Positions 12,211 through 43,621 of a stretch of 54,853 nt of DNA are shown here, one piece after another; position 1 is the first letter of the stretch, and every line of letters begins with the position of its first letter. The position numbers and the translations under genes were made by a program. The notes below the pieces were generated by a model. That model was not told the origin of the DNA. It did no database searches and saw only the letters and a program-made list of their open reading frames with translations. Source of the DNA: Candidatus Delongbacteria bacterium (GTDB taxonomy: Bacteria; JAGOEH01); contig JAGOEH010000002.1 in the NCBI GenBank assembly GCA_017997825.1, forward strand, positions 1-54,853, written 5' to 3'.

Positions 12211-13086
12211 TTACCAGCCGCGGCTCTGCAGGCGTTCGCCATCGGGCACCTTAGAGGTGTCAATCCCGGGCATTCCATCACCCAGCTCTTGGGAGACCTC
12301 GGCCAGTACTTTGGGATCCGTATAATGAGTCGCCGCCATGACAATGGCTTTGGCCCGCTTTTCTGGATCGGAAGACTTGAAGATCCCGGATCCTACAAAT
12401 ACACTTTCAGCGCCCAACTGCATCATCAGCGAGGCATCGGCCGGGGTGGCAATCCCGCCGGCAGCAAAATTAGGAACCGGCAGCTTGCCATTCTGGGCCA
12501 CCCAGCGAACCAATTCATAAGGGGCTCCCAGATTCTTGGCTTCGGTCATCAGTTCCTCGTCCCGCAACAGGGTCAGTCGTTTAATCCCGGACTGAACTTC
12601 CCGCATATGACGGACCGCATGGATAATATCTCCCGTTCCGGCTTCACCCTTGGTGCGCATCATGGCGGCTCCTTCGCCGATTCGGCGCAAGGCTTCGCCC
12701 AGATTACGGCATCCGCAGACAAAGGGAACTTTAAACATGAACTTATCGACATGGAACTGATCGTCCGCCGGAGTCAATACCTCCGATTCATCTATATAAT
12801 CCACACCAAGATATTCCAAAATCTGGGCTTCCGCGAAATGCCCGATCCGACATTTGGCCATCACGGGAATATCAACGGCCGTCATGATCTCCTTGATTTT
12901 TTTCACTGCCGCCATCCGGGCGACTCCGCCTTCGGCCCGAATATCGGCCGGAACACGTTCTAAAGCCATCACAGCCACAGCTCCGGCCGATTCGGCTATC
13001 TCCGCCTGCCTGGCGTCCGTCACATCCATGATAACGCCGCCTTTGAGCATATCAGCCAGGCCGACTTTCAATCGCATTTCAATCAT
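12211..13086 (-). CDS. pdxS: Pyridoxal 5'-phosphate synthase lyase subunit
   Basis: [21 protein letters not shown] and [11 protein letters not shown]; 291 aa. AGGAGG lies 8 nt upstream of the ATG. Confidence 0.92.
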
Positions 13087-21700: not shown

Positions 21701-24700
21701 CGCACCAGGGGAGGAAATTGGCCGGTACCGACATCGAATGATAGGGTTCCTCCGCCCGATATTCCGGTCACTTTTTCATTCTTGGCCAACAGGGTCAGAT
21801 GTCCCCAAAATCCGGTAAAAAAGACAAACGGGGCAACCGGTACAGAAAAGCATCCCTCCATCCCTCCTGAAACATCATGCATATAGGGAGATTGAGAATA
21901 CAGCTCCAGGCTGGCTTTCAGAAAACAAGCCCCCAATCCTCCAGTCAATCCCCCGGTTACCAACTTCCGTAGTTGGAATGGAAAGATCAGCGTAGCCTTG
22001 CCGAACAGACACCATTTCTTGATATCAGTCTTATAACTGAATCCCACCTTGGGGCCTTCAAATTTCCAATCGGCCACTCGGATATCCGGAATGGCGGTTT
22101 TCAGGTCATCGCAATCGGGATCATCGCCGGTTTCCCTGCAAAAATCGATATCCTTCCGATCAGCCGTAATTCGCAGATAAAGGGATTTGGCTTTGAGAGC
22201 CGGGGCCGGCGCAAACTTGTCTCCGATCATAAAATGATCCACCTGACCAATCATAAAGGCTGAATTGATATTCCCCTTCAATTGTAGTTTATTGGTAAAA
22301 ATCTGGATTTCCGCGATATTCAGGATCAGCCAATCGGAAGTCCCTTCCTTGGTTTTGGCATAGAGCTTTCCCTCGATATGGCCGTCGGATTTGATGGCAA
22401 AATCTTTGACCGCCTTACACCGGATATCGGATCCGTCATCCTGTTTCAGTCCCTCCATACTCAGATCGATCAAACTATCGGTATAATTCAGGTAAACCAA
22501 GCTATTCTTGGTATCGATTCCTTTCACCACCAGCCGGGAATTGAACAGCGCGCCCAGATTATCAGACGATAATCGGATCTGGGATCCAGCTTGCATCAGA
22601 ATGGTTGAACTCGGCATCGTCAATTGACCGGAAAAGATATTTAATGTATCCCCATCGGTTCGGAATCGAACCAATCCTTCTCCGGACGTAATCGCGGTCC
22701 GCTCCTGATTGACTATTACATATCCATTCTGAATAATGGTCCGATCTCCGATTTTAACCATTCCCTGACTGCGATACCCGACGTCCTCAATCACCGACCA
22801 GCTTTCCGGACATATAGTTACCCCATTAACGGTAAAACAGCTATCGATGCAGGTAAACTGATAGGATCGCCCCGGAGGATCAGCCTGTCCCTGTGAATTC
22901 ACCGGCACAACATACCACCAATAGCGGCTGCCCGGACTTTTCAGATGATACTGAAAGCAAATAGTATCCCGGCTATACTCTAAAAAATTGAGAGTATCAG
23001 GAATCAGGGTGTCCAGTTCGATCCGTGTCATCAGACTATCCAGTCCGAGCACCAATCGATAATGATCGGCATAACAGGAGCGTTCCCAGATAAAGGATGC
23101 AGAGACATGGACATCGGGGGCTTCATGCTTGGGAGTATGACCACGGCACCATGAGGAGGGTTGACGCATCAGAGTCGTTACACTCCATGTATCAGACCAG
23201 TAAGAATCCCATGAATCGAGCCGACACTTGGCCTTCCAATAATAGGTGCGTCCACTCCGCAATAGATATACCGGAATCTGCGATATCCCATGGTCATAAT
23301 AGCGGACCGAATCCCGAAACAGACTATCGGTCGAGATTGCCAGCAAATAATTGTAATTGATGGTACGTCCCTTGACAACGAAATTGAATCCGCAGGAGGT
23401 TTCATTACTACCGTTGGTTGGAGCGGAAAGCTCCATTTTACGATATCGGATTTGAAATGAGCTATCGCTGATATCGGCGATCTGATTGCGCCGGCTATCC
23501 TCCAGCCGTAAGGAAAACCCACGTCCATGGACATGCGGGACTATCCATTCCGTATTCCCCTGGTACTCATTGGCTGCTGTATTCGGAATCGTATCGTACC
23601 ACGTAACGGTCTGATTGCTGTCGATCAGGGCCACCCTTAAGGCTTCGATATTGCCTTGGGAGCGCCAACGAAGGGTAAAGACGCTATCCAGCACCAAGCT
23701 GTCACCGCCGTTAGGTTGGATAATTGCAACGCCTCTAACCGGATAGACGGCAAAGGCCGGCGAAAGGTCCTGATAATCCCGATCCAGATTTAGAATCTGA
23801 AGCCTAATCTGTGCCTGATCAGTCAACGGAACTTCCATGGGAATGGTCCATGAATACTGACGCAGACTCAAATCGGTATTCTCGGCAATGGTCAATTGAT
23901 AGTCATGCCCCGGATCCTCATACTCAATCCGCACAGCCTCTCCGATTCCATTATAATCCCACCGGATCAGGCAGGGATCGCCTCGTTCCCATACCGTATC
24001 GGCGGTTGGAGCTGTTAATCGGATCCAATTGTAATACATTCTGAATCGGCTGTCGGACAGATCGTATTCTTCCGGATCATCACTATTGACAATCTTGATC
24101 AGACAATTGAAGGAATTGGTATCGGGAACGGTAAACTGGTAAGAATCCCGAGCTTGGGTCGGCTTGTTCCGAATCAGCTCGATATAACTCTGTCCGCTAT
24201 CCACCGAATAATACAGATCGACATGGTGAACATACTGGGGTGAAGTCCACCGAATCTCGCACTGGGTACCATTCTGAACCGATTCACCGCCGTTGGGGCT
24301 CAGGATGTTCAGGGGTGCTACTTCCATCAAATCGTTACGGACACTCAGAAACAGAGCGCCATCGCCCTTCCCCATCACGATATCCTGGTGGTTATAATTG
24401 TCAAAGGCATAGGTTTTAAAGGGATGATGTCCCTCAAACACAGCACTGGAGTAAGGAACAATCCCGTCATTGTTCAGCCCGAATTCATGATTCAACACAT
24501 AGGAACCGACATTATACATAGCCACACTATTGACGTAAGGAGGAGTGATCAGTTGTCCCGGAATTCGGCCGGCATAAACGATCAGACGGTCATCGATCGA
24601 AAAATCGGTGTTGAGAGTGTTCAGCCAAAGGTTGGATTCATTGGGGTAGCTCGTATAATCCAACAGAGCATCAAAATTATCCCAATGCATATCGTAACGG

Positions 24701-26886
24701 TTCGGATCCTGGTAATGGTTCTGACTGAAGAGGCCTAGTTCCAGCAGATTCATGGTCAGCGCCATTCCCTCACTGACATGGGCATTTCGGGCAGGACCAT
24801 TGGCGATCGGAGAACCGTGATGAGGCGTTCCCAAGGTGATAATCAGCTTGGTTCGCTTGAGATAACCATGCTCCTGAGCCGTTGACCGGGCGACTAAGCC
24901 CCCCATACTGTGGCAGAGAAAGACAAACTTCTTGCCGGTGAATCCATCACTATAACCTTCCCAATTCAACAACTCCTGGCTTAACCGGTCTCCTAGTTGG
25001 TCCACACTATACCAGTTGGAGTAATAATTTACGTAATAGGGCTTGTAACTAGCTTTCAGTTCTTCATCTTGGGCCAGATACGCCAGAAAATTATCCCAGT
25101 AGCCGGGACTGGGGACACCTGGAGACTCTGAGGGTCTCCAGCCATGCACCAGCAAAAGAGGCACCCGATCTTTCAAGGGACTGAAATCGGCCTCATAAAT
25201 CGTCAACGGCAAAGCGATAGCTGTGGTTACAAACCGACTGTAATCCGACCATTGACTGGTATCCGCACCGGTTATCCCCCTCACCCGCCAATAATACTGA
25301 GTATTGAGCTCAAGATTGTCAACCCGGACCGAACTGTCAGGGATATTCGATATCTCCCGAACCAAAGTCATAAACGATGATTGATGCGAAACCTGGACAT
25401 AGTAAACAGTATTGGTATCGGCACCATAATACAACCAGCGCAGACGGGGATTGGTCGAGACATCACCGGCACCATCCTGGGGCAGTACCGGGATCGGTTT
25501 AGAGCGTTCTCCCAGAAAATTGAATACACTATCGGTTTCGATCACCAGTGCTATCCGGGTAACCGGATCAAACTGGAAACCATATTTATACGGAGTCACA
25601 CTATAAGTCCCATATTGCAGCACATCAAAATGATAATCCCCGGAGACATCGGTGATTGCAGTATCCAAATCCGTACCGGTCAGAATGACCGTTACACCCG
25701 AAATAGGGGTATCGGCTGCTGCACCCAAACGGAGCCTCGGGTTTTCTTGATTGCTTCCCGATCCCATCATTAACGATAACGTTTTAAGGGTAATTTTACC
25801 ACTGATCCGGACATAGTTCTGGTAGGCCTCAAAATCCTGGGTTTGATTCTCTTCCGGGGCCATCAGCTCGATATAAGCCGGTAAAAAGGTATAATCCTCC
25901 TTGTATGCGGTCAGTATATAACTACCGGTCGCGTTAACCGTAAAGCTGTAATTCCCCGAAACATCGGTCAGGACGGTATCGTTGGTCGTTCCCACCAGCA
26001 TCATCCGAACATCCGCCAGGGGGGCGCCGCTGAACGTCACCTGTCCGCTGACGATAATCGCATCCAGACTGGCCGCAAAATTCTGGACCTGGTTGTTAAA
26101 GGGATTCAAAAACTCCTTCGTCAGCGGATCAAAGGTGTATCCCGCTTTGGCAGGAGTCACCAGATAATACCCACCGGCCCCCACCGAAAAGGAATACTGA
26201 CCGGTATGATCGGTTACCAGCGAATCATTGTTGCTGCCGGTCAAATGAACCGTTACCCCGGATAACCCATTTCCATCCAGGGTAATTACACCACTGACGG
26301 TTAATGTATTGATGGCAGCCGTAAAATTAAAAACCTGATCCCCGGTGATGGCGGGGAAGAGATTGGAAATTGGAGTAAAGGTATACCCGCTTTTTTGTGG
26401 GGTCACCGTATAGGTACCGCCATAGGAGACAGTAAATTCATAAGCCCCGGTCAAATCGCTGGTGACCGAATCGATCAGTGAACCGCTCAGATAAACAGTT
26501 GCACCCGGCAAAGGATTTCCATCGACAGTCAGTAGGCCGCTGATCTTCAGAGGAACCCGATCGGCGGTAAAATCCAGCGTATCCAGATCTTGAACAGCGG
26601 AAACAAATAGGTGATTGGTAGGATCAAAATTATAACCGGCCAGACTCGGCGTGATAGTTCCACTGGCCCCGGCTGATACCGTAAAACTATAATGCCCGTT
26701 TTCATCCGAAGTGGTCGAACTGGTGGAACCCGGAAAACCGACTACAACACAACTAAGCTGAACCCCGGCTAATCCGGTTCCATCATGAGTGATCGTTCCG
26801 CTATAGGTATAATTTAATTGAGCCTGTGTCGAATAAACCATACAGACCAATCCTACTAAAACCAACAACCATCGACAGAATCTCAC
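18793..26886 (-). CDS. Giant (2,697 aa) T9SS-secreted multidomain protein with embedded lipase-like alpha/beta-hydrolase
   Basis: GTG start with GGAAGG upstream, and signal peptide MRFCRWLLVLVGLVCMVYSTQA. Domains in order:
- five ~80-100-aa CarboxypepD_reg/Cna-B-like repeats (aa ~24-460)
- FN3-like modules
- a hydrolase with LLLVHGW / CHSMGG / NNDGIVP / NYNHQD
- Ig-like modules
- a ~650-aa unassigned core
- more FN3 modules
- acidic thrombospondin-type-3-like Ca-binding repeats (DTDGDRIWDDVDPHP, NPDTDGGGLSDGDEVD)
- a T9SS CTD (NYPNPFNQSTVIRYQLP...GVYFYQLK). Confidence 0.85.
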   Translation of the reverse strand: MRFCRWLLVLVGLVCMVYSTQAQLNYTYSGTITHDGTGLAGVQLSCVVVGFPGSTSSTTSDENGHYSFTVSAGASGTITPSLAGYNFDPTNHLFVSAVQDLDTLDFTADRVPLKISGLLTVDGNPLPGATVYLSGSLIDSVTSDLTGAYEFTVSYGGTYTVTPQKSGYTFTPISNLFPAITGDQVFNFTAAINTLTVSGVITLDGNGLSGVTVHLTGSNNDSLVTDHTGQYSFSVGAGGYYLVTPAKAGYTFDPLTKEFLNPFNNQVQNFAASLDAIIVSGQVTFSGAPLADVRMMLVGTTNDTVLTDVSGNYSFTVNATGSYILTAYKEDYTFLPAYIELMAPEENQTQDFEAYQNYVRISGKITLKTLSLMMGSGSNQENPRLRLGAAADTPISGVTVILTGTDLDTAITDVSGDYHFDVLQYGTYSVTPYKYGFQFDPVTRIALVIETDSVFNFLGERSKPIPVLPQDGAGDVSTNPRLRWLYYGADTNTVYYVQVSHQSSFMTLVREISNIPDSSVRVDNLELNTQYYWRVRGITGADTSQWSDYSRFVTTAIALPLTIYEADFSPLKDRVPLLLVHGWRPSESPGVPSPGYWDNFLAYLAQDEELKASYKPYYVNYYSNWYSVDQLGDRLSQELLNWEGYSDGFTGKKFVFLCHSMGGLVARSTAQEHGYLKRTKLIITLGTPHHGSPIANGPARNAHVSEGMALTMNLLELGLFSQNHYQDPNRYDMHWDNFDALLDYTSYPNESNLWLNTLNTDFSIDDRLIVYAGRIPGQLITPPYVNSVAMYNVGSYVLNHEFGLNNDGIVPYSSAVFEGHHPFKTYAFDNYNHQDIVMGKGDGALFLSVRNDLMEVAPLNILSPNGGESVQNGTQCEIRWTSPQYVHHVDLYYSVDSGQSYIELIRNKPTQARDSYQFTVPDTNSFNCLIKIVNSDDPEEYDLSDSRFRMYYNWIRLTAPTADTVWERGDPCLIRWDYNGIGEAVRIEYEDPGHDYQLTIAENTDLSLRQYSWTIPMEVPLTDQAQIRLQILNLDRDYQDLSPAFAVYPVRGVAIIQPNGGDSLVLDSVFTLRWRSQGNIEALRVALIDSNQTVTWYDTIPNTAANEYQGNTEWIVPHVHGRGFSLRLEDSRRNQIADISDSSFQIRYRKMELSAPTNGSNETSCGFNFVVKGRTINYNYLLAISTDSLFRDSVRYYDHGISQIPVYLLRSGRTYYWKAKCRLDSWDSYWSDTWSVTTLMRQPSSWCRGHTPKHEAPDVHVSASFIWERSCYADHYRLVLGLDSLMTRIELDTLIPDTLNFLEYSRDTICFQYHLKSPGSRYWWYVVPVNSQGQADPPGRSYQFTCIDSCFTVNGVTICPESWSVIEDVGYRSQGMVKIGDRTIIQNGYVIVNQERTAITSGEGLVRFRTDGDTLNIFSGQLTMPSSTILMQAGSQIRLSSDNLGALFNSRLVVKGIDTKNSLVYLNYTDSLIDLSMEGLKQDDGSDIRCKAVKDFAIKSDGHIEGKLYAKTKEGTSDWLILNIAEIQIFTNKLQLKGNINSAFMIGQVDHFMIGDKFAPAPALKAKSLYLRITADRKDIDFCRETGDDPDCDDLKTAIPDIRVADWKFEGPKVGFSYKTDIKKWCLFGKATLIFPFQLRKLVTGGLTGGLGACFLKASLELYSQSPYMHDVSGGMEGCFSVPVAPFVFFTGFWGHLTLLAKNEKVTGISGGGTLSFDVGTGQFPPLVRGVPGFNINTKGILDLTGELRLFGFITMSKVAFSLDASQKNKTVLYGKMYFESPPYYPWVKADVEGKIEILSTSQANRSNLVDRMYFTGTSLFQIPGKVVTIMGLNLPPGDIVLQGYKIEVGEFKSGGKSMGKGVQAGVCIFTLSYPTCECGCTPWYKPWKWDWDCSWVHKQIWATAFVPIQSGKPRLGTNFYDLVKFSKRTYLRRRGNLESMSSYIRQFASDGNGDTLHIYVPPSSSEMTFFSLKYYSEKRPSLVFLNPSETHGYWSDKMIEDSPGSVTDSGFVVGVPTEPGVWKILVDSIQSSSDYLLTIAGLNTPPKLTIQSTVRNSDTLYTIGYQAYDADDEATITFYYTENDSTKGLLINPSELIERDTTGLYQWNVRGVKNGTYRIYGIISDAANPLVKTFYDQPVVIGHHDVPAVPRDFRVIRDTAEMIFCWQEDPYSEQYQIRWGTQSGIYTDTITGITGHQYPFFPETDSTVYYAVIAAENINGDWSPFSAELSFSFNTIELDTLPPAIPSKPVVKAVCSVADNPDSSLTLPYVVISWTRSSDAAGYVITYRPTESEQENSFDVGQSDSLTITGLTSGTTYGFSLQAYDSVYNYSSASQTVTADLFPPDDRDGDGMNDSQEIRYFGDIDYTNDSMGDEDEDELTNGYELEHGTNPMNHDTDGDRIWDDVDPHPTSSIDTDNDLMPDDWERYYELDLPDEDPDRDRLSNLNEYRYGTDPLNPDTDGGGLSDGDEVDRGRDPLNAKDDPWDGLPAAELKSFTARWENDSIGLQWVTRDENFLKGFNLYRKQSHQNGYERINPDLIVPPADSGSGHGYSYQDGPINPDSTYTYWLESLGEFENADSLGWVEVAAVTAINEPTQPDIKEFDLEQNYPNPFNQSTVIRYQLPIDERYPSYSVELEIFNLLGQRVRSLVRANQPSGRYQVIWNGMNDQGRAVKSGVYFYQLKSNKFCTKRSLLLLR
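24337..25179 (-). other. Lipase/esterase-like alpha/beta-hydrolase domain inside the giant protein (aa ~570-850)
   Basis: An oxyanion-hole-type LLLVHGW, a nucleophile elbow CHSMGG (Ser660 codon 24907-24909, checked by reverse translation), then NNDGIVP (Asp) and NYNHQD (His). This order fits a Ser-Asp-His triad. HSMGG resembles the Bacillus LipA / PGAP1-like pentapeptide. Confidence 0.6.
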
Positions 26887-26933
26887 AAATGCCTTCCTTT
26901 CACTATTTCCGACCCATAGAGAATCAAATAAAA

Positions 26934-26949
26934 AGCAATTTTGAAACCA
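26934..26949 (-). promoter_or_regulatory. Candidate sigma-54 (-24/-12) promoter upstream of the giant cargo gene
   Basis: Minus strand: TGGTTTC-AAAA-TTGCT. It keeps the invariant GG and GC with the consensus spacing of TGGCACG-N4-TTGCW. It lies 48-63 nt upstream of the GTG start. Only 8 of 12 consensus positions match, and a chance match is possible. Confidence 0.3.
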
Positions 26950-27544
26950 CCGGCTGGTATTAAATTTCCAGGGTGACAGTCAATCGGTTTATCACTATTC
27001 CATATACCATCTATATAAATAAATCTGATATATCTAGAAACGACATATTTTGAAAGAACTCCTAACTTAAATCCTGAATCCTATTCATCACCTATTGTTT
27101 TATCACTAGTTCAAACAACCAATAGATATCAATCTTTCCAAACATCTACAATCAAGGTATATAGTAAATAAATATATCATCCGACATCCCTACCCAGATT
27201 ACATGCCATAAATTATTCTCTGACTCAATATTGCCAAAATAGTCAATAAATTTTCAAAAATCAATATTTTTTTTTTCGATAATATAAATATTCTAAGATT
27301 CATCAATCATTTGAATACCATTATGATAAAGTTATAGCCCGAATTTATTGATTGGAGATCATGCTCCCTCATTGGGATATACGATATCATATCGGAATAG
27401 ATGGGATTGATCCGATATCAAGGCTATTCCTGGTATCCGTTACTGATGAACAACCTTCGAGCAGTCCATGATCGGCAATAACCGTTTCATAGCACATTCC
27501 ACAGTAACATCTTGACCGGATTCCAGTTCACCGAAAAAAACGGG

Positions 27545-27766: not shown

Positions 27767-30415
27767 ATGTTGAATTTGGCCGACCGATACGATCCCTCAT
27801 CAGTAGAAAATAAGTGGTACGATTATTGGCTGTCCCAAAAGATGTTTCATGCCGAACCGAGCCGTGATAAGCCGCCCTACACCATTGTGATTCCACCGCC
27901 CAACATTACCGGGGTCCTCCACATGGGGCATGTGCTCAACAATACGCTTCAAGATATTCTGATTCGCTGGAAAAAAATGCAGGGATTCAATACTGAATGG
28001 CTGCCGGGCACCGATCATGCTGCAATCGCTACCCAGAATGTACTGGAAAAGATGCTCAGAAAAGAGGGCAAGACCAAGGACGATATCGGCCGAGAGGCCT
28101 TTACCCAGCTTTTTTGGGACTGGCGGAATAAATCCGGGGGAACCATCATCAAGCAGCTCAAGCTGCTGGGGGCGTCCTGCGACTGGGAACGGGAAGCCTT
28201 TACTATGGATGCCAACCTGACCCGGGCCGTCCAGGAAGTTTTCATTCGCCTGTATAATAAAGGGCTGGTTTATCGGGGTAAATATATCATCAACTGGTGC
28301 CCTCGCTGCGGTACAGCCCTCAGCGACGACGAGACCGACTATGCCGAAAAACAGTCCCACCTGTGGCATATCCGTTACCATTTCAAGGATGAACCTGAAA
28401 AATATCTGGTGGTGGCTACCACCCGGCCGGAAACCATGCTGGGCGATACGGCGGTAGCGGTCAATCCCAAGGATGAGCGATTCACGGCCTTGATCGGAAG
28501 AAAGTTAATCCTGCCGATCGTCAACCGTGAAATCCCGATCATTGCCGATGATTTTGTCGATCCAAGCTTCGGTACCGGCTGCGTCAAAGTCACACCGGCC
28601 CACGATCCCAATGATTTTCAGATGGCGATGCGCCATCCCCTGGAAAAAATTGTGGTCATCGATTCTTCCGGCAAGATGAACGATCAGGCCGGTATATATC
28701 AAGGACTGGATCGTTTCGAATGCCGCACCCGATTGGTGGAGGATCTGAAATCCCAAAATTATCTGGAAAGCATCCAGGATTACACCCATAGCGTCGGCCA
28801 TTGCTACCGCTGCAATACCGTAATCGAACCCCATCTCTCCGATCAGTGGTTCGTTAAAATGGGCCCTCTGGCCCAGCCGGTGATCCAGGCTATCGAAAAT
28901 GATCAGATCAAATTCTACCCGGAACGCTGGAAAAAGAACGCCCTCAACTGGCTCTATAACATCCGGGATTGGTGCATCTCCCGCCAGATCTGGCTGGGGC
29001 ATAAAATTCCGATCTGGTACTGTCCCGACCATCATGTCACCGCCTCGATCCCCCGACCGGAGAAATGCCCGATCTGCGGATCAACCGATCTGGTTCAGGA
29101 TCCCGATGTGCTGGATACCTGGTTTTCCTCGTGGTTGTGGCCCTTCTCAACCTTCGGCTGGCCGGAAAAAAACAAGGATCTCGACTATTTCTATCCCACC
29201 AGCACCCTGGTCACTGATCCGGGCATCATCTTCTTCTGGGTGATCCGGATGATCATGGCCGGTTATGAATTCATGGGCAACAAACCCTTCAGCGAAGTCC
29301 ACCTGCATGGAGTGGTCTGCGACGAACAGGGCCGCAAAATGAGCAAGTCACTGGGGAACTCCCCCGACCCGATCGATATCATCCAGACCTATTCGGCCGA
29401 CGCCATGCGTTTCGCTATCATCTTCTCCACTCCTCCCGGCCAGAATACCCTCTATTCCGACAAACAAACCGAAATGGGACGTAACTTTACCAATAAAATC
29501 TGGAATGCCTTCCGACTGGTGATGATGAATATCGAAGATTTTAGTTTGTCCGAATTCCACTATGATCCATCACGACTCACCCTGCCCGACCAGTGGCTGC
29601 TCCACCGTCTCAACCACGCCATCGATCAGATCAATGCTGACCTAAAGGAATTCCGGTTCAACGAAGCCGAACATGCCATCTATGATTTCATCTGGAAGGA
29701 TTACTGCGACTGGTACCTGGAAATTAACAAGCTGCGATGGTATCAGCCGGTATCCGATCAGGACAAAGCCATGTCTCAATACCTGTGTATTCATATCATG
29801 CAGGCGTTTCTCAAACTGCTGCACCCCTTCATGCCCTTCCTGACCGAGGAGATCTGGCAGAGCTTCAAATCAGCCGGGTTGTTGACCCGCGATCAGGATA
29901 AGCTCTCCATTATGGCGGCTCAGTTTCCTCAAGTCGATCCGGCCTGCGATTTCCCGGAAGCTTTTAAGGAGATGGAATTTTTGATGGAACTGATCTCCCA
30001 GATCCGTAATATCCGGTCTGAAAAGAATATTAAACCCAAGGATAAGGTCAACCTGGTCCTTAAACGGGATCTGCCGGTTATCGCTCAGAACCAAGCGTTT
30101 GTCGGCAACCTGGCCAAGGTGGATCAGATCAGTATCAGTGATACCGCTCCAGCCGACTCGGCCGTCGGGGTGGTCGGCGACCTGGAATTCTATATTCCCC
30201 TGAGCGGACTGGTCGATCTGGGCAAGGAAAAGGAAAAGATCGAGAAGGAAATAAAACAATTAGCCGGATATTTACAGGGATTGAATCAAAAACTGCAGAA
30301 TGAGAAGTTTGTGAGCGGTGCCCCGGCCGAGGTAGTGGCCAAGGAAAAAGCCCGCCGCGACGAACTGCAGGCTAAATATGACACCCTACAGCAGGCCCTG
30401 GCCAAAATGAGCTGA
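27767..30415 (+). CDS. valS: Valine--tRNA ligase
   Basis: 882 aa with PPPNITGVLHMGH (HIGH region), KMSKSLGN, an editing-domain-sized insertion and a C-terminal coiled coil. Confidence 0.95.
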   Translation: MLNLADRYDPSSVENKWYDYWLSQKMFHAEPSRDKPPYTIVIPPPNITGVLHMGHVLNNTLQDILIRWKKMQGFNTEWLPGTDHAAIATQNVLEKMLRKEGKTKDDIGREAFTQLFWDWRNKSGGTIIKQLKLLGASCDWEREAFTMDANLTRAVQEVFIRLYNKGLVYRGKYIINWCPRCGTALSDDETDYAEKQSHLWHIRYHFKDEPEKYLVVATTRPETMLGDTAVAVNPKDERFTALIGRKLILPIVNREIPIIADDFVDPSFGTGCVKVTPAHDPNDFQMAMRHPLEKIVVIDSSGKMNDQAGIYQGLDRFECRTRLVEDLKSQNYLESIQDYTHSVGHCYRCNTVIEPHLSDQWFVKMGPLAQPVIQAIENDQIKFYPERWKKNALNWLYNIRDWCISRQIWLGHKIPIWYCPDHHVTASIPRPEKCPICGSTDLVQDPDVLDTWFSSWLWPFSTFGWPEKNKDLDYFYPTSTLVTDPGIIFFWVIRMIMAGYEFMGNKPFSEVHLHGVVCDEQGRKMSKSLGNSPDPIDIIQTYSADAMRFAIIFSTPPGQNTLYSDKQTEMGRNFTNKIWNAFRLVMMNIEDFSLSEFHYDPSRLTLPDQWLLHRLNHAIDQINADLKEFRFNEAEHAIYDFIWKDYCDWYLEINKLRWYQPVSDQDKAMSQYLCIHIMQAFLKLLHPFMPFLTEEIWQSFKSAGLLTRDQDKLSIMAAQFPQVDPACDFPEAFKEMEFLMELISQIRNIRSEKNIKPKDKVNLVLKRDLPVIAQNQAFVGNLAKVDQISISDTAPADSAVGVVGDLEFYIPLSGLVDLGKEKEKIEKEIKQLAGYLQGLNQKLQNEKFVSGAPAEVVAKEKARRDELQAKYDTLQQALAKMS

Positions 30416-30417
30416 TT

Positions 30418-30454
30418 AAAAAAGGCCTTCCGGAATCTCCGGAAGGCCTTTTTA
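30418..30454. terminator. Bidirectional rho-independent terminator between valS and the convergent small ORF
   Basis: AAGGCCTTCCGGA (30422-30434), a 3-nt loop, TCCGGAAGGCCTT (30438-30450). The 13-bp stem is perfect. It is flanked by an A-run (30418-30423) and a T-run (30449-30453), so it reads as hairpin plus U-tract on both strands. Confidence 0.85.
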
Positions 30455-30462
30455 TATAACGA

Positions 30463-30654
30463 TCACTTGATATTCAAATCATAAACGGAAATACTGGATG
30501 AACGCCGTGACAGTTCATCCAGATCCACTTTCCCCGGATGATTCGCCACATGGCAGAATAACTCCCGGGTTTGTGGATCGTAATGGATCAGATTATCATT
30601 CATCTTGAATGTATCCAGTACCCGACCGGTTTTCAGGGATACAAAATCCACCAA
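30463..30654 (-). CDS. Hypothetical small protein (63 codons from a TTG; 46 from the first ATG)
   Basis: ORF only, with no recognisable motif. It lies 5 nt downstream of the Rpn-like gene in a different frame. Its C-terminal SISVYDLNIK loosely resembles the C-termini of the two beta-propeller lipoproteins nearby (VVVRYKIK, IKLYRLN), so it may be a gene remnant. Confidence 0.25.
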   Translation of the reverse strand: MVDFVSLKTGRVLDTFKMNDNLIHYDPQTRELFCHVANHPGKVDLDELSRRSSSISVYDLNIK

Positions 30655-30659
30655 CCGGA

Positions 30660-31676
30660 CTAAATTTCTAACTGATCAATATCTTTAATTTTTAAAGCTT
30701 GGCGGATCAGTTCTTCCAGACGATCGATTTGCTTCAAATTCCGAATGGCTTTAAGTTTGACGGCAGGCACAGTATGAAAACGCGCTTTCAGGATAGTAAT
30801 CAGTGAATTAATGGAAGCCTCGAGTTTACCTTCGAGTTTACCCTCAAGCTTGCCTTCAAGCTTACCTTCAAGCTTACCTTCGAGTTTTCCTTCAAGCTTA
30901 CCCTCAAGCTTACCCTCGCTGTATTTCTCCTGCAAAATGATTTCATCAAAACTAGTTAAGTAGGTCATAGGTAAATCTCCTTCATCCCGCTTGATTTCAT
31001 CATAAATCAGCTTATTCTTCATCATGTCCGAAATATATAGTATTCCATCTATAAAACGAATTATGCTCCTGATTTGTTCCCGGGAAAATCCCTTATGAAT
31101 CGACTTCTTGATCAGTTCTTTCTTGAAGTAATAATACCGTTCCTCATCATTCCGGTAGCTGACGGCATAACGAGCCGCCTGAATCACCGGGCCAAACGGA
31201 TTAACCATCCTTTCCAGCGAATCTTCCGTATAATCAATCAGTTTAAGGGTATTATACCTAAATACCAGGCTGCAGCCATAAAACTCATACTCAAACCGGT
31301 CAGGCCGAAAACTTCGATTGATATCAGTGAATACAGCTGCACTGATGATCTTTTTCTGATACTTGTCATAAATCCGATAGAAATAGCGAAACATCCGCTC
31401 ACTGAAGCCGGATTGCCGATATCCCTGGATCTCAATGTGAATCAGTATCCACTGTTCAGTCTGGTCTTTCAGCTTTACCTGGATCAGCTTATCCAAAACC
31501 CTCTGTCTGTTACTTCCGGAATTCATCGAAATTTCGGACAATTCCTTATCCAGCGACAAACACGCCTCACTGAAATCAATATGAGGATACAAATCGGGCA
31601 CTATAAGTTCCAGAAACTGAGGCAGGTTTTGATCGATTACATGTTTCCACAAATCATCAAATGGAATCCTCATCAT
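30660..31676 (-). CDS. Rpn-family recombination-promoting nuclease / putative transposase (PD-(D/E)XK N-domain + DUF4351-like C-domain)
   Basis: DDLWKHVI...SLDKELSEI...VLDKLIQVKLKDQTEQWILIHIEIQGYRQSGFSERMFRYFYRIYDKYQKKIISAAVFTD...FEYEFYGCSLVFRYNTLKLIDY closely follows the D...(E/I)H(I/V)E(I/V)Q core of the cyanobacterial-type Rpn/DUF4351 family. The C-terminus ILKARFHTVPAVKLKAIRNLKQIDRLEELIRQAL is DUF4351-like. AAGGAA precedes the ATGATG start. Confidence 0.8.
   Translation of the reverse strand: MMRIPFDDLWKHVIDQNLPQFLELIVPDLYPHIDFSEACLSLDKELSEISMNSGSNRQRVLDKLIQVKLKDQTEQWILIHIEIQGYRQSGFSERMFRYFYRIYDKYQKKIISAAVFTDINRSFRPDRFEYEFYGCSLVFRYNTLKLIDYTEDSLERMVNPFGPVIQAARYAVSYRNDEERYYYFKKELIKKSIHKGFSREQIRSIIRFIDGILYISDMMKNKLIYDEIKRDEGDLPMTYLTSFDEIILQEKYSEGKLEGKLEGKLEGKLEGKLEGKLEGKLEGKLEASINSLITILKARFHTVPAVKLKAIRNLKQIDRLEELIRQALKIKDIDQLEI
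30819..30914 (-). repeat. Coding 12-nt tandem repeat x8 encoding (GKLE)8 in the Rpn-family linker
   Basis: Plus-strand units: ctcgagtttacc / ttcgagtttacc / ctcaagcttgcc / ttcaagcttacc / ttcaagcttacc / ttcgagttttcc / ttcaagcttacc / ctcaagcttacc. All differences fall at synonymous codon positions, so the peptide repeat is perfect. Confidence 0.95.
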
Positions 31677-31694
31677 CTGTTCCTTACTATTTTC

Positions 31695-31722
31695 AATATA
31701 CCTCAGAAAGGTTAAAAGTCAA
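31695..31722 (-). promoter_or_regulatory. Candidate promoter for the Rpn-family gene
   Basis: Minus strand: TTGACT (31722-31717), 16 nt, TATATT (31700-31695). The predicted TSS is ~12 nt upstream of the ATG, with AAGGAA in the short leader. Confidence 0.45.
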
Positions 31723-31918
31723 ACTTAAATTTATCGAACAGATTTCCGGATCGCATATTCTTCATTTTATTTAATCACCAGGTCTACAGTTATTGATTCC
31801 AAAATTCTTATCGCATGTAAACTACTAAAAGAGGGGGCCGAGTGAACTCAAAATGAATTCAATGCCCCAATTTTACAACCGTAATTTCTCGACAGCGAAT
31901 TACAACCTAAAAATTGTA

Positions 31919-33013
31919 TTATAAACCCTCCATTAAGCACGAGCTTTTAATCTTATATCGTACAACAACAGGATTCCTAATTTCAAATGACATATCGGAA
32001 TCGGACGGTAAAGCCATGGGAATACTCATATAAACCACCGAATCATCTGCAAACAAAAGATATTGCAATTTATTGTTTTTCAGCTTTTTCGTCCGGCATT
32101 TGTCATGGCTGATAAAAAAAAGTTCATACTGAGGAGTATTTTGAATCAGATAATTCGCTATAATGCAATCTTTTTTCAGAAATGCCATTTCCCTAAATGA
32201 ATCGAATACCGGACGAGGTAGTGATTTAAAGTTCGACGGATAATCCTTCTCCAATAACTGATAATCATTATATCCACTATGGATGATGGAAAATTCTCCA
32301 CTGGCATTATCAAACCTGAAAATTCTATTTTCTATAGAATTTGATATATAACAATTGTTTTCACTGTCAACAAGCATACAACCACCTAGACCAACGATGC
32401 TGATGGCATTCAATAACTGATCATTAAAATTAAGATTCCCTACTTTTTCTTTTTTGTTTTTAGTAATATCCAGTGAAAACAAAGAATATCCTGCCGAGGG
32501 ATTCCCATCAGAAAAGTAGATATGGTTATCACATCCTATTCCAATAGGATCAGTAAGAGCATATCCTTCAAAATGATGCCCCTGCATCAAGAGCTTCCCG
32601 TCATTGACTTTGAAGTTAATTGCATAATTAGGAGAATAGAAACACCAAACACTATTATCACTCCTGTCTTTTACAAGACAAAAACAATGAGTTTTCAGCC
32701 CGGGAAACACTTTTTCCGGATCAATGATTTCAAATTTCTTCCGAGAATAATCAATATAGATTAGTTTAAACTTCTCCAAATCCCGAATAAAGAAATGATT
32801 GTTATCAACAGCAACAAAATTCCAGATCGCTTTAATAAACAATGAATCAAAATCGAACGTTAATGTGTCGACAAAATCAAAACACGAATCAAAATCAGAT
32901 TCTTTCAATTCCACAGTTTCAATCTTATCTGATACAGCTTGCTTATGGCTGCAAAGCATAAACAGTATACAAAAGCATATAACAATCAGCCCCAACCTCC
33001 GAATAAATCTCAT
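31919..33013 (-). CDS. Secreted/lipoprotein 6-bladed beta-propeller family protein (BF3164/DUF5128-like), paralogue A
   Basis: N-terminal hydrophobic signal ending in Cys (ILFMLCSHK), a beta-rich sequence, and the C-terminal signature NPVVVRYKIK seen in the Bacteroidetes 6-bladed propeller lipoprotein family. There is a strong SD (AAGGAGGAG). The gene is AT-rich. The family call is from memory. Confidence 0.55.
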   Translation of the reverse strand: MRFIRRLGLIVICFCILFMLCSHKQAVSDKIETVELKESDFDSCFDFVDTLTFDFDSLFIKAIWNFVAVDNNHFFIRDLEKFKLIYIDYSRKKFEIIDPEKVFPGLKTHCFCLVKDRSDNSVWCFYSPNYAINFKVNDGKLLMQGHHFEGYALTDPIGIGCDNHIYFSDGNPSAGYSLFSLDITKNKKEKVGNLNFNDQLLNAISIVGLGGCMLVDSENNCYISNSIENRIFRFDNASGEFSIIHSGYNDYQLLEKDYPSNFKSLPRPVFDSFREMAFLKKDCIIANYLIQNTPQYELFFISHDKCRTKKLKNNKLQYLLFADDSVVYMSIPMALPSDSDMSFEIRNPVVVRYKIKSSCLMEGL

Positions 33014-33224
33014 TAGATCTCCTCCTTAATTATTAAAACCAATCAACAGACTGATCAATAGTGTCTGTCCATTCACTGATACCCGGTCCATGAGATTCCC
33101 CTTTCCATGAACACACCGATGAAGGATGATGAAAGAATTCCGGAAAGCTTCATAATGCCGGCATTACTCCTTCCGGCCTTCCATGCCGTTTATCCGATCA
33201 ACAATTGTTTTATCCTGTGGTTTT

Positions 33225-33253
33225 ATGATAAGGCTTTCGACATCATTTGTCAA
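33225..33253 (-). promoter_or_regulatory. Candidate promoter for propeller paralogue A
   Basis: Minus strand: TTGACA (33253-33248), 17 nt, TATCAT (33230-33225). The leader would be ~200 nt. Confidence 0.4.
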
Positions 33254-33322
33254 GCATCTTTTGGGAGAAGGATTTGAGTAGTAGCACCCCGACCATGTTA
33301 TAGTAATACCCTGATCGAATTG

Positions 33323-36300
33323 TTAATGATCCAAAATCTCCCGGATTTTGACAGACAGCTCCCGGATGGTGAAGGGTTTTTGGATGAAATGGACGCCTTC
33401 ATCTAAGACGCCGTGATGGGCGATAACATCGGCCGTATATCCCGACATGAAAAGGCGGCCGAGCTGAGGATAGATCGAGAGCATATTCTTTGCCAGTTCG
33501 CGGCCGTTCATTTCCGGCATGATCACATCGGTCATTAATAAATCGATCTCTCCGGAATGCTCACGAGCCATGGCAATAGCCTGTCCCGGAGTGGAAGCCG
33601 CCAGCACCTTATATCCCAACCCGGTCAGCATGATGGAGGTCATTTTCAGAATAGCCGGTTCATCCTCCACCAACAGGATAGTCCCTTGTCGGGCAGCAAG
33701 CGGTTCGAGTTTGGATTCTGGGCTCTGAGTCCCGCGTTTTTCTCGATGACGGGGAAGATAAATCTTGATACTGGTTCCCTGGCCCGGTTCGCTGTAGACT
33801 GTAATGAAACCGTCGTTCTGCCTGACGATACCATAAATCGTGGCCAGTCCCAGACCGGTTCCCCGCCCCAATTCCTTGGTCGTAAAAAAGGGCTCAAACA
33901 GGTGGCCCAAGGTCTCTTTATCCATCCCGGCGCCATTATCGCTCACAATCAGGCGTATGTAATCCCCGGCTTTGGCATCGGCGGCAATCCGGCAATAGTT
34001 TTCATCAACCGAGACATTTTCCGTTTCGATGGTGATTCGGCCATTGCCCTTGATGGCATCACGGGCGTTGACACAAAGATTGGCCAAAATCTGGTCAATC
34101 TGGCTGGGATCGATCATTACCGATCCGAGCTCACTGCCGGGAATCCACGATAATTTAATATTTTCCCCGATCAGCCGTTCCAGCATCCGGAGCATGCCTT
34201 CCACGGTGGCATTCAGATCGATCACAATCGGGGAAACGGTCTGTTTACGGGCAAAAGCCAGCAATTGCCGGGTCAGGTTGGCGGATCGTTCGGCGGCTTT
34301 GCGAATCTCTTTCAGATTGGCCGCTAAGGGATGATCCGGCTCTATTTCGGCCAATCCCAGATCAGTATATCCGAGAATCACGCCCAGCATATTGTTGAAA
34401 TCATGGGCCACCCCTCCAGCCAATCGTCCGACCGATTCCATTTTCTGGGCTTGCACTAACTGAGCCTGGAGTTTGTTATGCTCGGCTTCGGACCGTTTCC
34501 GTTCGGTAATATCCCGGTAGATAGACTGATAGCTCCCATCCGGCATCATCTTGGTCCTCATCTCAACATGGATTTCCTCCCCCTCAGGATTGATCATAAT
34601 CCGCTGAGCTTCAACGATCTGACCTTGCCGAAGCAAATCATACCGTAGCGGTGAAGCTTGAATACTCTCCGGTTTAAAGGGCAGATCCCGGATATCGATT
34701 CCGATGATAGCCTGGCTGGAAAATCCAATCATATCACAAAATGCCTGATTAGCCCCGATAATGATACCCTGGGGTGAACCCAGCAGAATTCCATCGACCG
34801 CCAATTCGATCAGTTCGCGAAATCGGTTTTCGCTCTCTCTCAATTCCTCCTCATGCTGCCTGCGGTCGGTAATTTCGGTCGTCATACCACATAGCCCGGT
34901 CACTTCTCCACTTGCGCTATGCAAGGGAAACTTGACCGAGATGAAATATCGATTACCATTCGGATAAGTCAATACCTCATCAAGTTCAAGGACCCGATCC
35001 GATTCCATTGCATTCAGATCATGGCTACGAAAGACCTGAGCATCGGCAGGGGGAAAGAGATCCTGGTCGGTTTTGCCAAGCACCTCTTGTCGCATCAATC
35101 CGGTTACTTCTTCCCACTTCCGGTTAACCAGTTGATACCCCCCCCGGCAGTTCTTGACATAGATCAATGCCCCGCTGTGTTCAATCAGATCGGCCATGAA
35201 CCGTTGATTTTCCCTCAACGCATCTTCCACCTGTTTTCGTTCCGTAATATCCTGACTGATCCCAAATACCCGGATCGGTTTTTTCTGATTATCCATCTCC
35301 ACTTCACCCATCGAAATCAGATATCGGAGTTCTCCTGTATCTTTTTTAAAAATCCTCATTTCCATCGAATAAGGATTACCGGTCGACAATGATTCTGCTA
35401 TGATAGAATTTGATCGATCCCGGTCTTGCGGGTGAATCCGTTCCGTTACCTCTCTGAAACTGGGATAACTATCCAAAGGAAATCCCATTATTTTCAGGCC
35501 CTCTTCAGACACAATGAAACGATCGGCTATGATATCCCAACTCCAGCTCCCAACATGGGCGATGGCCTGACTACGCTTCAGATTCTCCAACGATTCCTTT
35601 AGTACTTTCTCCGCTCTAAGACGATCAGAAACATCATAGATAAAAGAAAATAAAAGCTGTTTGCCTTTGATTTGAACTGGTCCCGAATAAACCTCAACAT
35701 CGCGGATTGAACCATCAGCTCGACGATGATGAAAATTAAAGCAGCTTTTCTTCATTGCAATAGCCGAATTCATTTCGGCGACAATTTCTTCCTGAGTTAA
35801 TATATTGATCTGGGCAATATTCATTGTCAAAAGTTCATTTCGGGTCCAACTATAATACTCCACCGCCGCCTGATTGACATCCAAAATCTTTCCGGTTTTC
35901 GGATCAAGCAGCAGCATAACCGAATGGTGGTTATCAAACAAGATCCGGTATTTTTCTTCATAATTCCTTAGTTTTTCCTCAATTATACGGTGCCGGGTAA
36001 TATCGATCCATATGCTCAAAACTCCGATGATCGCCCCATCACTCATCTTCCGCCGAGGAACAGCACTAATCTCGAACCATCGATAATCATTGGATTCCGG
36101 CACAGCCATTCCCATTATCACATTCCGCACCGCCTGTCCGGTACCAAGGGCGATCGTTCCGGGAAAATCCGAGGTATCGAAAGCCGAACCATCGTCACGA
36201 ACCGCTTTCCTCAATAAATCAGCCGGCAGCATCCCCATCATTTGATCCGGAGTGAGCATAAAAACCTCAGCGGCGGCCGAATTGGCATATAGTATCCGTC

Positions 36301-36388: not shown

Positions 36389-36718
36389 CGTGCTCCAGGG
36401 GTAAATCGATTATTGATATCATGAAAGCGCCGGCGGATCGATTCCCGGGATAATCCCGGCCAAAATCCGGTATCACATGTCTCACCTTATCATAATAAAA
36501 TATATCGTCCAATGAATGTCAAGCGTTATAAAAATAAAGTCGATTTTGCCGCTACATCTAAAAAAATTTTACTATTCCCTAACGACTCCAGGTTACCCCA
36601 ATCTTTTATCCGATTCATGGTTTATCCCCGGTATAGTGGAGTAAAATATGAAATACCAAAGCGGATACATCATATCAAAGGATTTTCAGGACTCAATCAT
36701 GTCAATGATTCAGAATGA

Positions 36719-37861
36719 TTATAACAATTTATCGGTATTCAACCGGTAAAGTTTGATGCAGCGATGTGCCGGATTCATATCATTCATAGGCTCCGCTTCA
36801 TTGATGATGTCACGCTCAATAAACAAATTATTCCAGGTTCCTATGAAAAAGTGATTCGATTTTGGGATATGAGAATAAATCTTTTTTTGCTGGGTATCAA
36901 TCAGATCATAATATGTCATAATCATTCCATCGGATGCAGTACGGTTGATCGTGTCGGTCACCATATCTCCTTCTCTTTGCCAAAGATCGATCAGCAGATA
37001 ACGATCTTCAACAAAATAGAGTCTGAAAATGCAATTCATATTTAACCAGTTGCGTTTATATTTTTCTTCACATTCTTTTTCCGAGACGGAATCGATCTCT
37101 AAAAATTCATAGGGAAAATAAGGATTGGTATAATATCCTATACTCAAATCCCCCACCCAATGGCGGATTTTATATTCCTGAGTGGAACACAGAAAAGATT
37201 GACCATTGGAAAAAGCGTGTTGGATGGACATATGATGGGTTTTACAGCCCTTATACTTGTTGTTTTCCGATTCGGTATAGATGCTCCACAATGGAGTCAG
37301 GCTGTCGCTGGTTAGATCATAATGGGCAAACAACAACCCAGTGGGTTCAAAAATCATATTAATCAAGAATAGTTCAGGACCCATTTCATAAAAGCAATGA
37401 AAAATCCGGTCTGTTTTTTTCAGGGAAATCGATTTAATGAACTGATTGGTAAAGGAATAACAATTGATAGCTCCTTGGGGCCAGGTCAATACCAAGACCA
37501 TTGAATCATTGATTTGAGTCCAGTGATTGTTTTTAATCTGAGTCTTTCCAAATCCATTTTCACCAATTCGGTTAAGGTATTCACCTCGACGATTAAATAC
37601 CATAGGAAGAGGGTCCATCTCCCCCACCGCAACAATAAATGAATCATTCATCAGCACTCTGTCAAACTTAGATATCACAGATTCCGATGTACACTGCAAA
37701 ACAAAACTATCAACCACACAGAACAGATCACGACCATCTTTGATCTGTTCTGTATTACCTTGAACCAATGGAATCATGACATCCTTCCGCTGATCAGGCA
37801 CTCCTCTCCGAACACATCCAATCAATAAGTAGAACAATCCAAGAACCAGTAGCCGTTTCAT
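36719..37861 (-). CDS. 6-bladed beta-propeller family lipoprotein, paralogue B
   Basis: Canonical lipobox LLIGC, a beta-rich body, and a C-terminal NPAHRCIKLYRLN signature. SD GGGGAGGG. AT-rich. It has the same family look as 31919-33013 but is strongly diverged. Confidence 0.5.
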   Translation of the reverse strand: MKRLLVLGLFYLLIGCVRRGVPDQRKDVMIPLVQGNTEQIKDGRDLFCVVDSFVLQCTSESVISKFDRVLMNDSFIVAVGEMDPLPMVFNRRGEYLNRIGENGFGKTQIKNNHWTQINDSMVLVLTWPQGAINCYSFTNQFIKSISLKKTDRIFHCFYEMGPELFLINMIFEPTGLLFAHYDLTSDSLTPLWSIYTESENNKYKGCKTHHMSIQHAFSNGQSFLCSTQEYKIRHWVGDLSIGYYTNPYFPYEFLEIDSVSEKECEEKYKRNWLNMNCIFRLYFVEDRYLLIDLWQREGDMVTDTINRTASDGMIMTYYDLIDTQQKKIYSHIPKSNHFFIGTWNNLFIERDIINEAEPMNDMNPAHRCIKLYRLNTDKLL

Positions 37862-38208
37862 GCTTCCCTCCCCTTGTGAATGAATTACAGAATCACAGCC
37901 GGAAAAACTCCATATTATATTAATTGATAATTAAAACTCAATTAATCCGGATCCGTCAATAGATTATCATTCGACACCTATTTTCAACCCAGACTTGATG
38001 AAAAATTATGTTGCATAGTGTCAATCAATGAATCTAAAAATCTTCTCAACAACCAAAAGCGATAGCTTATAATCAGGAAAAAACAATCCGGAAAATGATT
38101 AAGTACCGAAAAAAATAGAAATCCGAATCCGGGAACAGATGATAAGTTCATTGTGACGAGATTACTCCAGTTAAATCTCCACTTTGGTATATATTATATC
38201 ATGGATTC

Positions 38209-41739: not shown

Positions 41740-42104
41740 CGTTTCTTTTCGATTTCGAAAATCTTGGGTTTCAGCCCCATTTTTGTCAGACGGACTTGCT
41801 CTTGCTCGGCCTCTTTTTTATCTTTGTAAACGGCCGTAAAGACATAATAAAACTTTTTATCGATCCCGTCATACTTTTTGGAATCAAAGACAAAACTTTC
41901 GATCTTATAGTTCTTCTTGAAAAAGGTGGTGGCCTTGATGCACTCCGACGCCTGCCGGTCCTTGTAAATGGCCACCAGGTAATCTTTGGTGATCGTAATA
42001 GTATCGGCAGAGGTCGAATTGATGTTGGGCATGTTCTGCTTGCATCCTGTAAGAATCGACATGCCCATCAGGATTACAACCATCAGTCTTTTAACATTTT
42101 TCAT
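41736..42104 (-). CDS. Small lipoprotein, possibly SPOR-like
   Basis: Lipobox ILTGC. The mature ~100 aa part shows a duplicated beta-alpha-beta-like pattern (YLVAIYKDRQASECIKA...; YYVFTAVYKDKKEAEQEQVRLTKMG) reminiscent of SPOR domains. The ATG overlaps the upstream stop (ATGA, 42101-42104). Confidence 0.45.
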   Translation of the reverse strand: MKNVKRLMVVILMGMSILTGCKQNMPNINSTSADTITITKDYLVAIYKDRQASECIKATTFFKKNYKIESFVFDSKKYDGIDKKFYYVFTAVYKDKKEAEQEQVRLTKMGLKPKIFEIEKKR

Positions 42105-43528: not shown

Positions 43529-43621
43529 AGGCGCAGCACTCAAACCATTCCTTTAGTCATCCCTTCCCATGGTGCGATCCGATCAATCGGCAGACCGGGA
43601 ATATGGAAACCTTGTTATTCA

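Follow-up and report, generated by a model that had tools for sequence, protein, structure and literature searches.

Does this gene encode one protein or two: a nuclease and, from a start codon nested in frame within it, the small protein that would hold that nuclease in check? The question is raised by a locus at positions 30660-31676 (minus strand) of a 54,853-nt stretch of contig JAGOEH010000002.1 from a Candidatus Delongbacteria bacterium (assembly GCA_017997825.1), an uncultured wastewater organism, the whole of which is referred to below as the window. The initial annotation of this DNA, made from the sequence alone, had described the gene as an Rpn/DUF4351-type nuclease with an internal Shine-Dalgarno (SD) sequence and ATG, and had proposed a toxin/intragenic-antitoxin module from a different branch of the Rpn family. 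Such systems have been described: rpn genes make from an internal start a short protein, RpnS, which attaches to the toxic nuclease RpnL and blocks it (PMC10400941). The gene studied here adds one clear Rpn member to this known type of system. Comparison with homologues reveals that the internal start is retained across phyla, and we conclude that the locus is probably a single-gene RpnL/RpnS toxin/intragenic-antitoxin module. The following features carry the argument.

30660-31676, minus strand: rpnL, the full-length open reading frame (ORF) of an Rpn-family PD-(D/E)XK nuclease, 338 aa (ORF listing and homologues).
30976-30983, minus strand: internal SD, GAAGGAGA, in codons E232-G233-D234 (sequence and conservation in homologues).
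30966-30968, minus strand: internal initiation codon ATG, Met237 (sequence and conservation in homologues).
30660-30968, minus strand: rpnS, predicted in-frame product of 102 aa, the presumed intragenic antitoxin (ORF, DUF4351 match with an E value of 0.012, AlphaFold2 [AF2] model).
30939-30965, minus strand: motif TYLTSFDEI, immediately 3' of the internal Met codon; family consensus x-Y-V-T-S-x-E-R-I (homologue alignment).
30819-30914, minus strand: eight 12-nt tandem units encoding (GKLE)8 (sequence).
30663-30818, minus strand: DUF4351-like C-terminal tail, residues 287-338 (Pfam match of 16 bits, below the cut-off of 25).

The codons preceding Met237 read GAT GAA GGA GAT TTA CCT ATG on the minus strand, exactly as first reported, with the in-frame ATG at 30966-30968. 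The distance of 8 nt originally given between SD and ATG is correct when counted from the AGGAG core; counted from GAAGGAGA, the spacer TTTACCT is 7 nt long. Translation from Met237 likewise bears out the claimed 102-aa product containing the (GKLE)8 linker and the DUF4351-like C-domain: the predicted protein runs from MTYLTSFDEIILQEKYSE through (GKLE)8 into a tail of 52 aa.

By itself, this combination of SD and ATG is weak evidence and does not exceed what chance would produce in the window. Among the 30 long ORFs of the window, seven of 360 internal in-frame ATGs (1.9%) are preceded at 3-11 nt by an SD of at least five matching bases. The initial annotation had considered the motif meaningful because genes of the window use strong SDs; the usage is real (AGGAGG or GGAGG stands at several gene starts), but seven of the 360 internal ATGs carry an equally good motif. 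Well-spaced AGGAG sequences are found, for instance, before the in-frame codons Met142/143 of a PdxS-like gene (12211-13086, minus strand) and Met402 of a sigma-54 activator gene (42101-43543, minus strand); these are probably due to chance and illustrate the background rate. The significance of the internal start lies in its conservation among homologues, not in the statistics of the window.

A database search yielded a first set of 535 homologues, the best with 59% identity and most with 30-45%. In an alignment of the best 120 of these, 105 of the 121 sequences have Met in the column of Met237. This search gathers candidates by shared words and favours proteins containing GKLE, and for this reason a second, independent sample was drawn, consisting of 80 genome loci selected solely by two N-terminal nuclease motifs taken from a nine-sequence alignment. 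These loci span Planctomycetota, Desulfobacterota, Cyanobacteria, Firmicutes, Chloroflexota, Poribacteria, Calditrichia, Bacteroidota and other groups. Two of them are truncated; a start codon occupies the Met237 column in 75 of the 78 intact genes (72 ATG, 2 GTG and 1 TTG). In each of the three genes with GTG or TTG (loci L004, L020 and L063), AAGGAGG stands 5-8 nt upstream of the internal start, and the retained property is therefore the capacity to start translation rather than the methionine residue. The three remaining genes (L033, L049 from a Sericytochromatia metagenome-assembled genome [MAG], and L045) are intact and have CTA, CTG or TTA at this position, without an SD; they may have lost the internal start.

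An SD of five or six bases precedes 62 of the 72 ATGs in the Met237 column, the commonest form being AGGAGG placed exactly 8 nt upstream and encoded by the Glu-Glu codons GAG GAG G. As a control, the other in-frame ATGs of the same genes were scored, and just 2 of 381 have an SD of that strength. Synonymous resampling of codons in 1000 trials produced 17.7 SDs on average and never more than 29, against the 62 observed. Codon usage shows the same bias: in the seven codons upstream of the internal start, Glu is encoded by GAG and GAA in a ratio of 103:42, against 909:1553 over the whole genes. Taken together, these sequence comparisons indicate that the internal start is under selection and that its SD is selected at the nucleotide level.

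Six loci were scored as lacking an SD by the pattern used. Two of these, the Firmicutes-type L026 and L076, have SD-like variants that the pattern does not count. The four others are of Bacteroidota type (L041, L057, L064 and L069, from Ignavibacteria, Dyadobacter, Saprospiraceae and Cytophagia); all four keep the ATG in the Met237 column and have A-rich leaders. The Bacteroidota are a phylum that does not rely on SDs, and the SD-less ATGs of these Bacteroidota and Ignavibacteria loci fit SD-independent initiation there. The loss of the SD in these four loci, where it is unused, provides a built-in control; the switching to GTG or TTG is further support. At the closest homologue, L162 (59% identity), the internal start reads AAGGAGAAGAACCC-ATG, and at the next, L163, GAGGAGGTGAAAAAA-ATG. 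Conservation of the SD and ATG among close homologues had been set beforehand as the check that might refute the proposal; it was found in L162, in L163 and across the 80 loci.

These data bear directly on an alternative explanation, namely that the SD-like sequence and Met237 are not an initiation site at all, being either a relic of an ancient fusion between nuclease and DUF4351 genes or a pause site at the domain boundary, with the full-length protein as the only product. Stand-alone DUF4351 genes exist, and about 2% of the internal ATGs in the window carry such motifs by chance. A relic would decay, yet the SD is kept across phyla beyond the expectation from synonymous codons. Moreover, the start codon changes to GTG or TTG rather than to any other codon, the ATG is retained in the four Bacteroidota-type loci that dropped an unused SD, and internal initiation has been proven in E. 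coli and for one C. difficile gene (PMC10400941). We consider this explanation very unlikely. The gene-within-gene design, established experimentally in E. coli and through the expression of one C. difficile gene, is now backed by nucleotide-level conservation across phyla, and the near-universal signature AGGAGG-N8-start is a possible rule for finding gene-within-gene regulators genome-wide.

A conserved internal start means that the short product is important, but does not tell what it does. A second alternative accepts that the short isoform is made and regards it not as an inhibitor but as a subunit that the active enzyme requires or that sets its specificity, comparable to Cas11d or to the TAEL repeats serving as a spacer ruler in the EcoR124I subunit HsdS. 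The authors of the RpnL/RpnS model themselves cite Cas10d/Cas11d and EcoR124I as parallels (PMC10400941), and the DUF4351-type tail differs from the helix-turn-helix (HTH)-like tail of the E. coli proteins with demonstrated inhibition. As in our locus, an in-frame internal start in cas10d gives rise to a small C-terminal protein, Cas11d, that assembles with the long one; in contrast to the inhibitor proposed here, Cas11d is a positive subunit, and its fold and function are unrelated. On the other hand, every Rpn pair tested so far (RpnA, RpnB, RpnC and RpnP2) is inhibitory (PMC10400941). In addition, the internal SD is far stronger than that of the full-length start, for which an equally strong SD is present at only 12 of 69 genes (with crudely chosen starts) as against 62 of 72 internal ATGs, a difference that fits an excess of inhibitor. 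We regard the subunit explanation as unlikely, and return to the intragenic antitoxin.

The nuclease domain of the full-length protein has the following parts.

30981-31676, minus strand: N-terminal nuclease domain, residues 1-232 (AF2 model, predicted local distance difference test [pLDDT] mostly above 90).
31425-31493, minus strand: catalytic core with D62 (31491-31493), E82 (31431-31433) and Q84 (31425-31427) (conservation and RpnA alignment).

The Rpn-type core seen at the outset is indeed present, the segment ...LDKLIQVKL... holding D62 and ...WILIHIEIQ... holding E82 and Q84. Many of the 535 homologues (E values from 1e-37 to 1e-128) are named Rpn family, RpnC/YadD, YdaD or DUF4351. Among 36 aligned homologues, TIGR01784 is matched by 29 (best E value 2.3e-15), PF04754 by 8 and PF14261, the DUF4351 family, by 11 (best E value 2e-24). 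An hhalign comparison of the family profile with E. coli RpnA is colinear across 261 columns, with an E value of 8.9e-5, and pairs D62, E82 and Q84 with D63, E82 and Q84 of RpnA, while D7 and R94 correspond to D11 and R94. In RpnA, D11, D63, E82, Q84 and R94 are functionally essential or important by mutation, and mutation of D63, E82 or Q84 abolishes activity (PMC5350276). The active site of our protein is intact: in the family alignment, each of D7, D62, E82, Q84 and R94 is either invariant or shows a conservation of at least 90%. Judged by these sequence matches, the locus belongs to the Rpn (YhgA-like, COG5464/TIGR01784) family.

The AF2 model of the full-length protein is confident at residues 1-232 and 280-338, with a pLDDT of 85-95 for the tail, and poor across the repeat helix. 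A Foldseek comparison of this model with the PDB gave no significant match (best E value 0.14); the weak matches lean to PD-(D/E)XK enzymes, namely Cap4, NucS, TnsA, MspJI and Kpn2I. When the family alignment was used as a profile against PDB sequences, no match was returned. A look-up of the exact window protein gave no entry, and a search for related loci with the single protein as query retrieved no close relative. FliH matches in NCBIfam were rejected as artefacts of the charged repeats.

Database names also include "putative transposase" and "transposase YdaD", and PHROG 3300, labelled "transposase", is matched with an E value of 2.4e-4. Since the gene lies within a low-GC island, it might be read as an insertion sequence (IS) transposase, with the island as the mobile element. 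However, neither terminal inverted repeats nor flanking direct repeats were found at 30200-33400, which contains only short chance repeats; the gene is present in a single copy in the window; no autonomous transposase is known to have the PD-(D/E)XK fold; and no sign of transposition was seen by Zhong et al. (PMC10400941). The PHROG match reflects old naming, and a transposase is an extremely unlikely explanation. Annotation pipelines should call the nested rpnS and drop the transposase naming for such genes.

A further hallmark of Rpn systems is a tandem tetrad repeat made of one hydrophobic residue and three charged or Gly residues, which lies in helix 1 and begins 8-20 aa after the RpnS Met; the number of repeats differs between strains and sets the specificity of L-S pairing (PMC10400941). 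The GKLE tetrads begin 18 aa after Met237 and, as read from the sequence, follow this rule. In the 73 genes with an internal ATG (our gene and 72 loci), the repeats begin a median of 14 aa after the Met (range 6-25) and number from 1 to 14 copies.

The array is polymorphic. In sludge metagenome X4, a contig covering 30650-30956 carries an allele with seven repeats that is otherwise identical and differs by a clean 12-nt deletion, while the form with eight repeats occurs in X1, X2, X3, X5 and X7; the polymorphism amounts to one variant, observed solely in assembled contigs. Units 4 and 5 of the array (30855-30878) are identical, which makes slippage the obvious cause of the deletion. A collapse during assembly is probably not the cause, because the deletion junction requires new 31-mers. 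The presence of eight and seven repeats in different sludge samples shows that this array, which would determine specificity, changes within natural populations. Rpn paralogues from the same MAG are mostly unequal in repeat number as well (L016/L029/L051, L002/L005, L034/L068 and L038/L047), with counts such as 14 and 7 GRQE, 4 and 6 GKRE, or 4 and 10 GxQQ. Insulation of paralogues by repeat number would predict such inequality.

Comparison with characterised systems places the gene within this family. Like E. coli RpnA (YhgA), it has a PD-(D/E)XK core with five key residues at near-equal numbering, an in-frame SD (AAGGAG in RpnA) with an ATG at the equivalent position (M244 in RpnA, M237 here), and a short product that starts with a long helix followed by short ones, as predicted here. 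The proven RpnAS start, M244, aligns three residues from Met237, and both stand directly before a T-x-x-E-R motif, the conserved motif that follows Met237 being aligned to M244-TIAERL; the DNA at the internal start is AAGGAGAGTTTAATG in E. coli and GAAGGAGATTTACCTATG in our gene. In contrast, the K-12 protein has no repeat expansion, and its RpnS of 49 aa ends in a short HTH-like tail (..FTGLSEEEL..), whereas our predicted RpnS, at 102 aa, contains the tetrad eight times and has a tail of DUF4351-like type; the overall identity amounts to about 19%. Tandem tetrads within RpnS helix 1 (for example KGIE) are shared with E. coli RpnC (YadD) and the C. difficile Rpn protein, in which repeat number varies between strains and sets specificity; the corresponding variation here is between eight GKLE repeats and the allele with seven. 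The tail of our protein is the same type of C-terminal module as that of stand-alone DUF4351 (PF14261) genes, for example ypaA. Stand-alone RpnS genes are annotated as DUF4351 (PMC10400941), and Zhong et al. read these RpnSs as separately encoded RpnS; in our gene the module is instead nested in frame.

On this basis, the following mechanism can be proposed. RpnL (338 aa) would be a toxic PD-(D/E)XK DNA endonuclease. Ribosomes would also start at the strong internal SD and ATG at Met237, producing an RpnS of 102 aa identical to the C-terminal part of RpnL and composed of the conserved N-terminal motif, a long helix in which the GKLE tetrad occurs eight times, and a small helical tail of DUF4351-like type. 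If the model of E. coli RpnA, RpnB, RpnC and RpnP2 applies, RpnS would use its repeat helix to associate with the same region in RpnL, keeping the nuclease inactive. A matched number of repeats would confer cognate specificity, and slippage in the 12-nt array would alter it. Release of RpnL, for instance upon phage infection, would lead to cutting of DNA. For RpnS production, RpnL toxicity, neutralisation by RpnS and any role in defence, the proposal draws on homology to the studied Rpn proteins. The original suggestion of a module from a different branch gains support from the conservation of the internal start, the catalytic residues, the placement of the tetrads 18 aa after the Met and the occurrence of eight and seven repeats.

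Besides the background rate of internal SD-ATG pairs given above, several observations weigh against the toxin/intragenic-antitoxin interpretation. As a single query, the protein matches its families only below threshold: PF04754 with an E value of 1.4e-3 (18.7 bits, cut-off 21), TIGR01784 with 2.5e-3 (17.7 bits, cut-off 52.1) and PF14261 with 0.012 (16 bits, cut-off 25). Family membership rests on transitive homology through the homologues, and the hhalign match to RpnA has a probability of just 60%. For the short product, Foldseek searches with the RpnS model retrieved generic long-helix matches and not 7TH0, the solved RpnAS structure, and hhalign detected no similarity between the DUF4351-type tail profile and RpnAS (probability 0.2%). 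Neither the gene nor its neighbours match PADLOC, PHROGs gave nothing useful beyond the match labelled "transposase", and the surroundings are not a defence-gene neighbourhood, although rpn systems tend to lie in defence islands and to protect against phage. The described systems also have an internal promoter from which a shorter and more abundant transcript is made. A scan for sigma-70-like promoters, whose consensus may not be that of this organism, found none inside the gene on the minus strand, and the metatranscriptomes contain three read-sized contigs on the gene, from two wastewater sets, too thin a coverage to define transcript ends. Finally, published toxicity tests concern E. coli proteins only, and defence has been reported for one system.

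The tail distinguishes the branch to which our gene belongs. Among the 73 genes with an internal ATG, a DUF4351-like tail (..RFGxxP..) is found in 44 and the short HTH-like RpnA type in 7. RpnS of the described systems is a three-helix unit that dimerises by its long first helix; the AF2 monomer of the RpnS predicted here consists of one long and two short helices (residues 6-64, 69-76 and 81-93; pLDDT 69). Assignment to a different branch in the initial annotation was fair, as the DUF4351-like tail has neither sequence nor Foldseek similarity to the RpnAS structure 7TH0. Because of this lack of detectable similarity to the HTH-like RpnAS, the DUF4351-tailed branch may use its short isoform in a way that departs from the E. 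coli paradigm. It is conceivable, though rather unlikely, that the short isoform in this branch is not a plain inhibitor but belongs to an L2S2 nuclease in which it senses a trigger or sets a length as a "ruler".

Additional features upstream and downstream of the gene are listed below.

31681-31685, minus strand: weak SD (AAGGA) of the full-length start (sequence).
31695-31722, minus strand: TTGACT-16-TATATT, a candidate promoter of sigma-70-like type for the full-length mRNA (10 of 12 positions match, by consensus only).
30463-30654, minus strand: ORF of 63 aa that separates rpn from the terminator (start codon TTG, 6 nt downstream of the rpn stop).
30419-30453, bidirectional: intrinsic terminator shared with the convergent valS (perfect stem of 16 bp, folding free energy [dG] of -30 kcal/mol, z score of -8).

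A second ATG, at 31673, may be the true start of rpnL, since homologues begin MRIPFDELWK. The claimed low-GC island was recovered: GC content is 34-44% over about 30250-33250, compared with about 50% on either side. The bidirectional terminator next to it is likewise real, and the 63-aa ORF lies between it and the rpn gene. As this ORF fills the gap up to the terminator, it would be co-transcribed with rpn. Searches of Pfam, NCBIfam, PHROGs and PADLOC gave no match for it, no relative lies beside other rpn homologues, and it is unrelated to the RpnSs; its membership of the rpn module is doubtful. On the other side of rpnL, a 364-aa orphan ORF (31919-33013, minus strand) with a perfect AGGAGG SD lies where the GC content of the island is lowest (about 34%). 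Its N-terminus is hydrophobic, contains Cys and is lipoprotein-like in appearance; no family match was obtained for it, and no relative was found beside rpn homologues elsewhere, so that it, like the 63-aa ORF, was left out of the module.

The gene is surrounded by valS, genes for a PAS histidine kinase, a TPR protein, a sigma-54 activator and GGDEF proteins, and two orphan ORFs; these neighbours are not shared with the locus of the closest homologue. The best relatives of ValS among GTDB representatives have 45-55% identity, which, taken with the T9SS-tailed and surface proteins described below, suggests that the lineage is an uncultured, FCB/PVC-like one. The absence of IS ends and the unshared neighbours fit mobility as a single gene. 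On three independent metagenome contigs (L163-L165, group P0002), an rpn homologue lies within a shikimate-pathway operon, between the DHQS C-terminal gene and the gene for a type II dehydroquinase, an instance in which a lone gene has entered an operon of housekeeping genes.

Elsewhere in the window, a further low-GC stretch (31-39%) at 36500-38000 covers an orphan ORF of 380 aa (36719-37861) that has no match in Pfam or PADLOC, and another of the same GC range lies at 26750-27500, just upstream of valS. Two large minus-strand genes encode, respectively, a beta-propeller protein of 1034 aa with a type IX secretion system (T9SS) Por_Secre_tail domain (13465-16569) and a surface protein of 2697 aa with CarboxypepD_reg, SdrD_B, fn3 and FlgD_ig domains (18793-26886).

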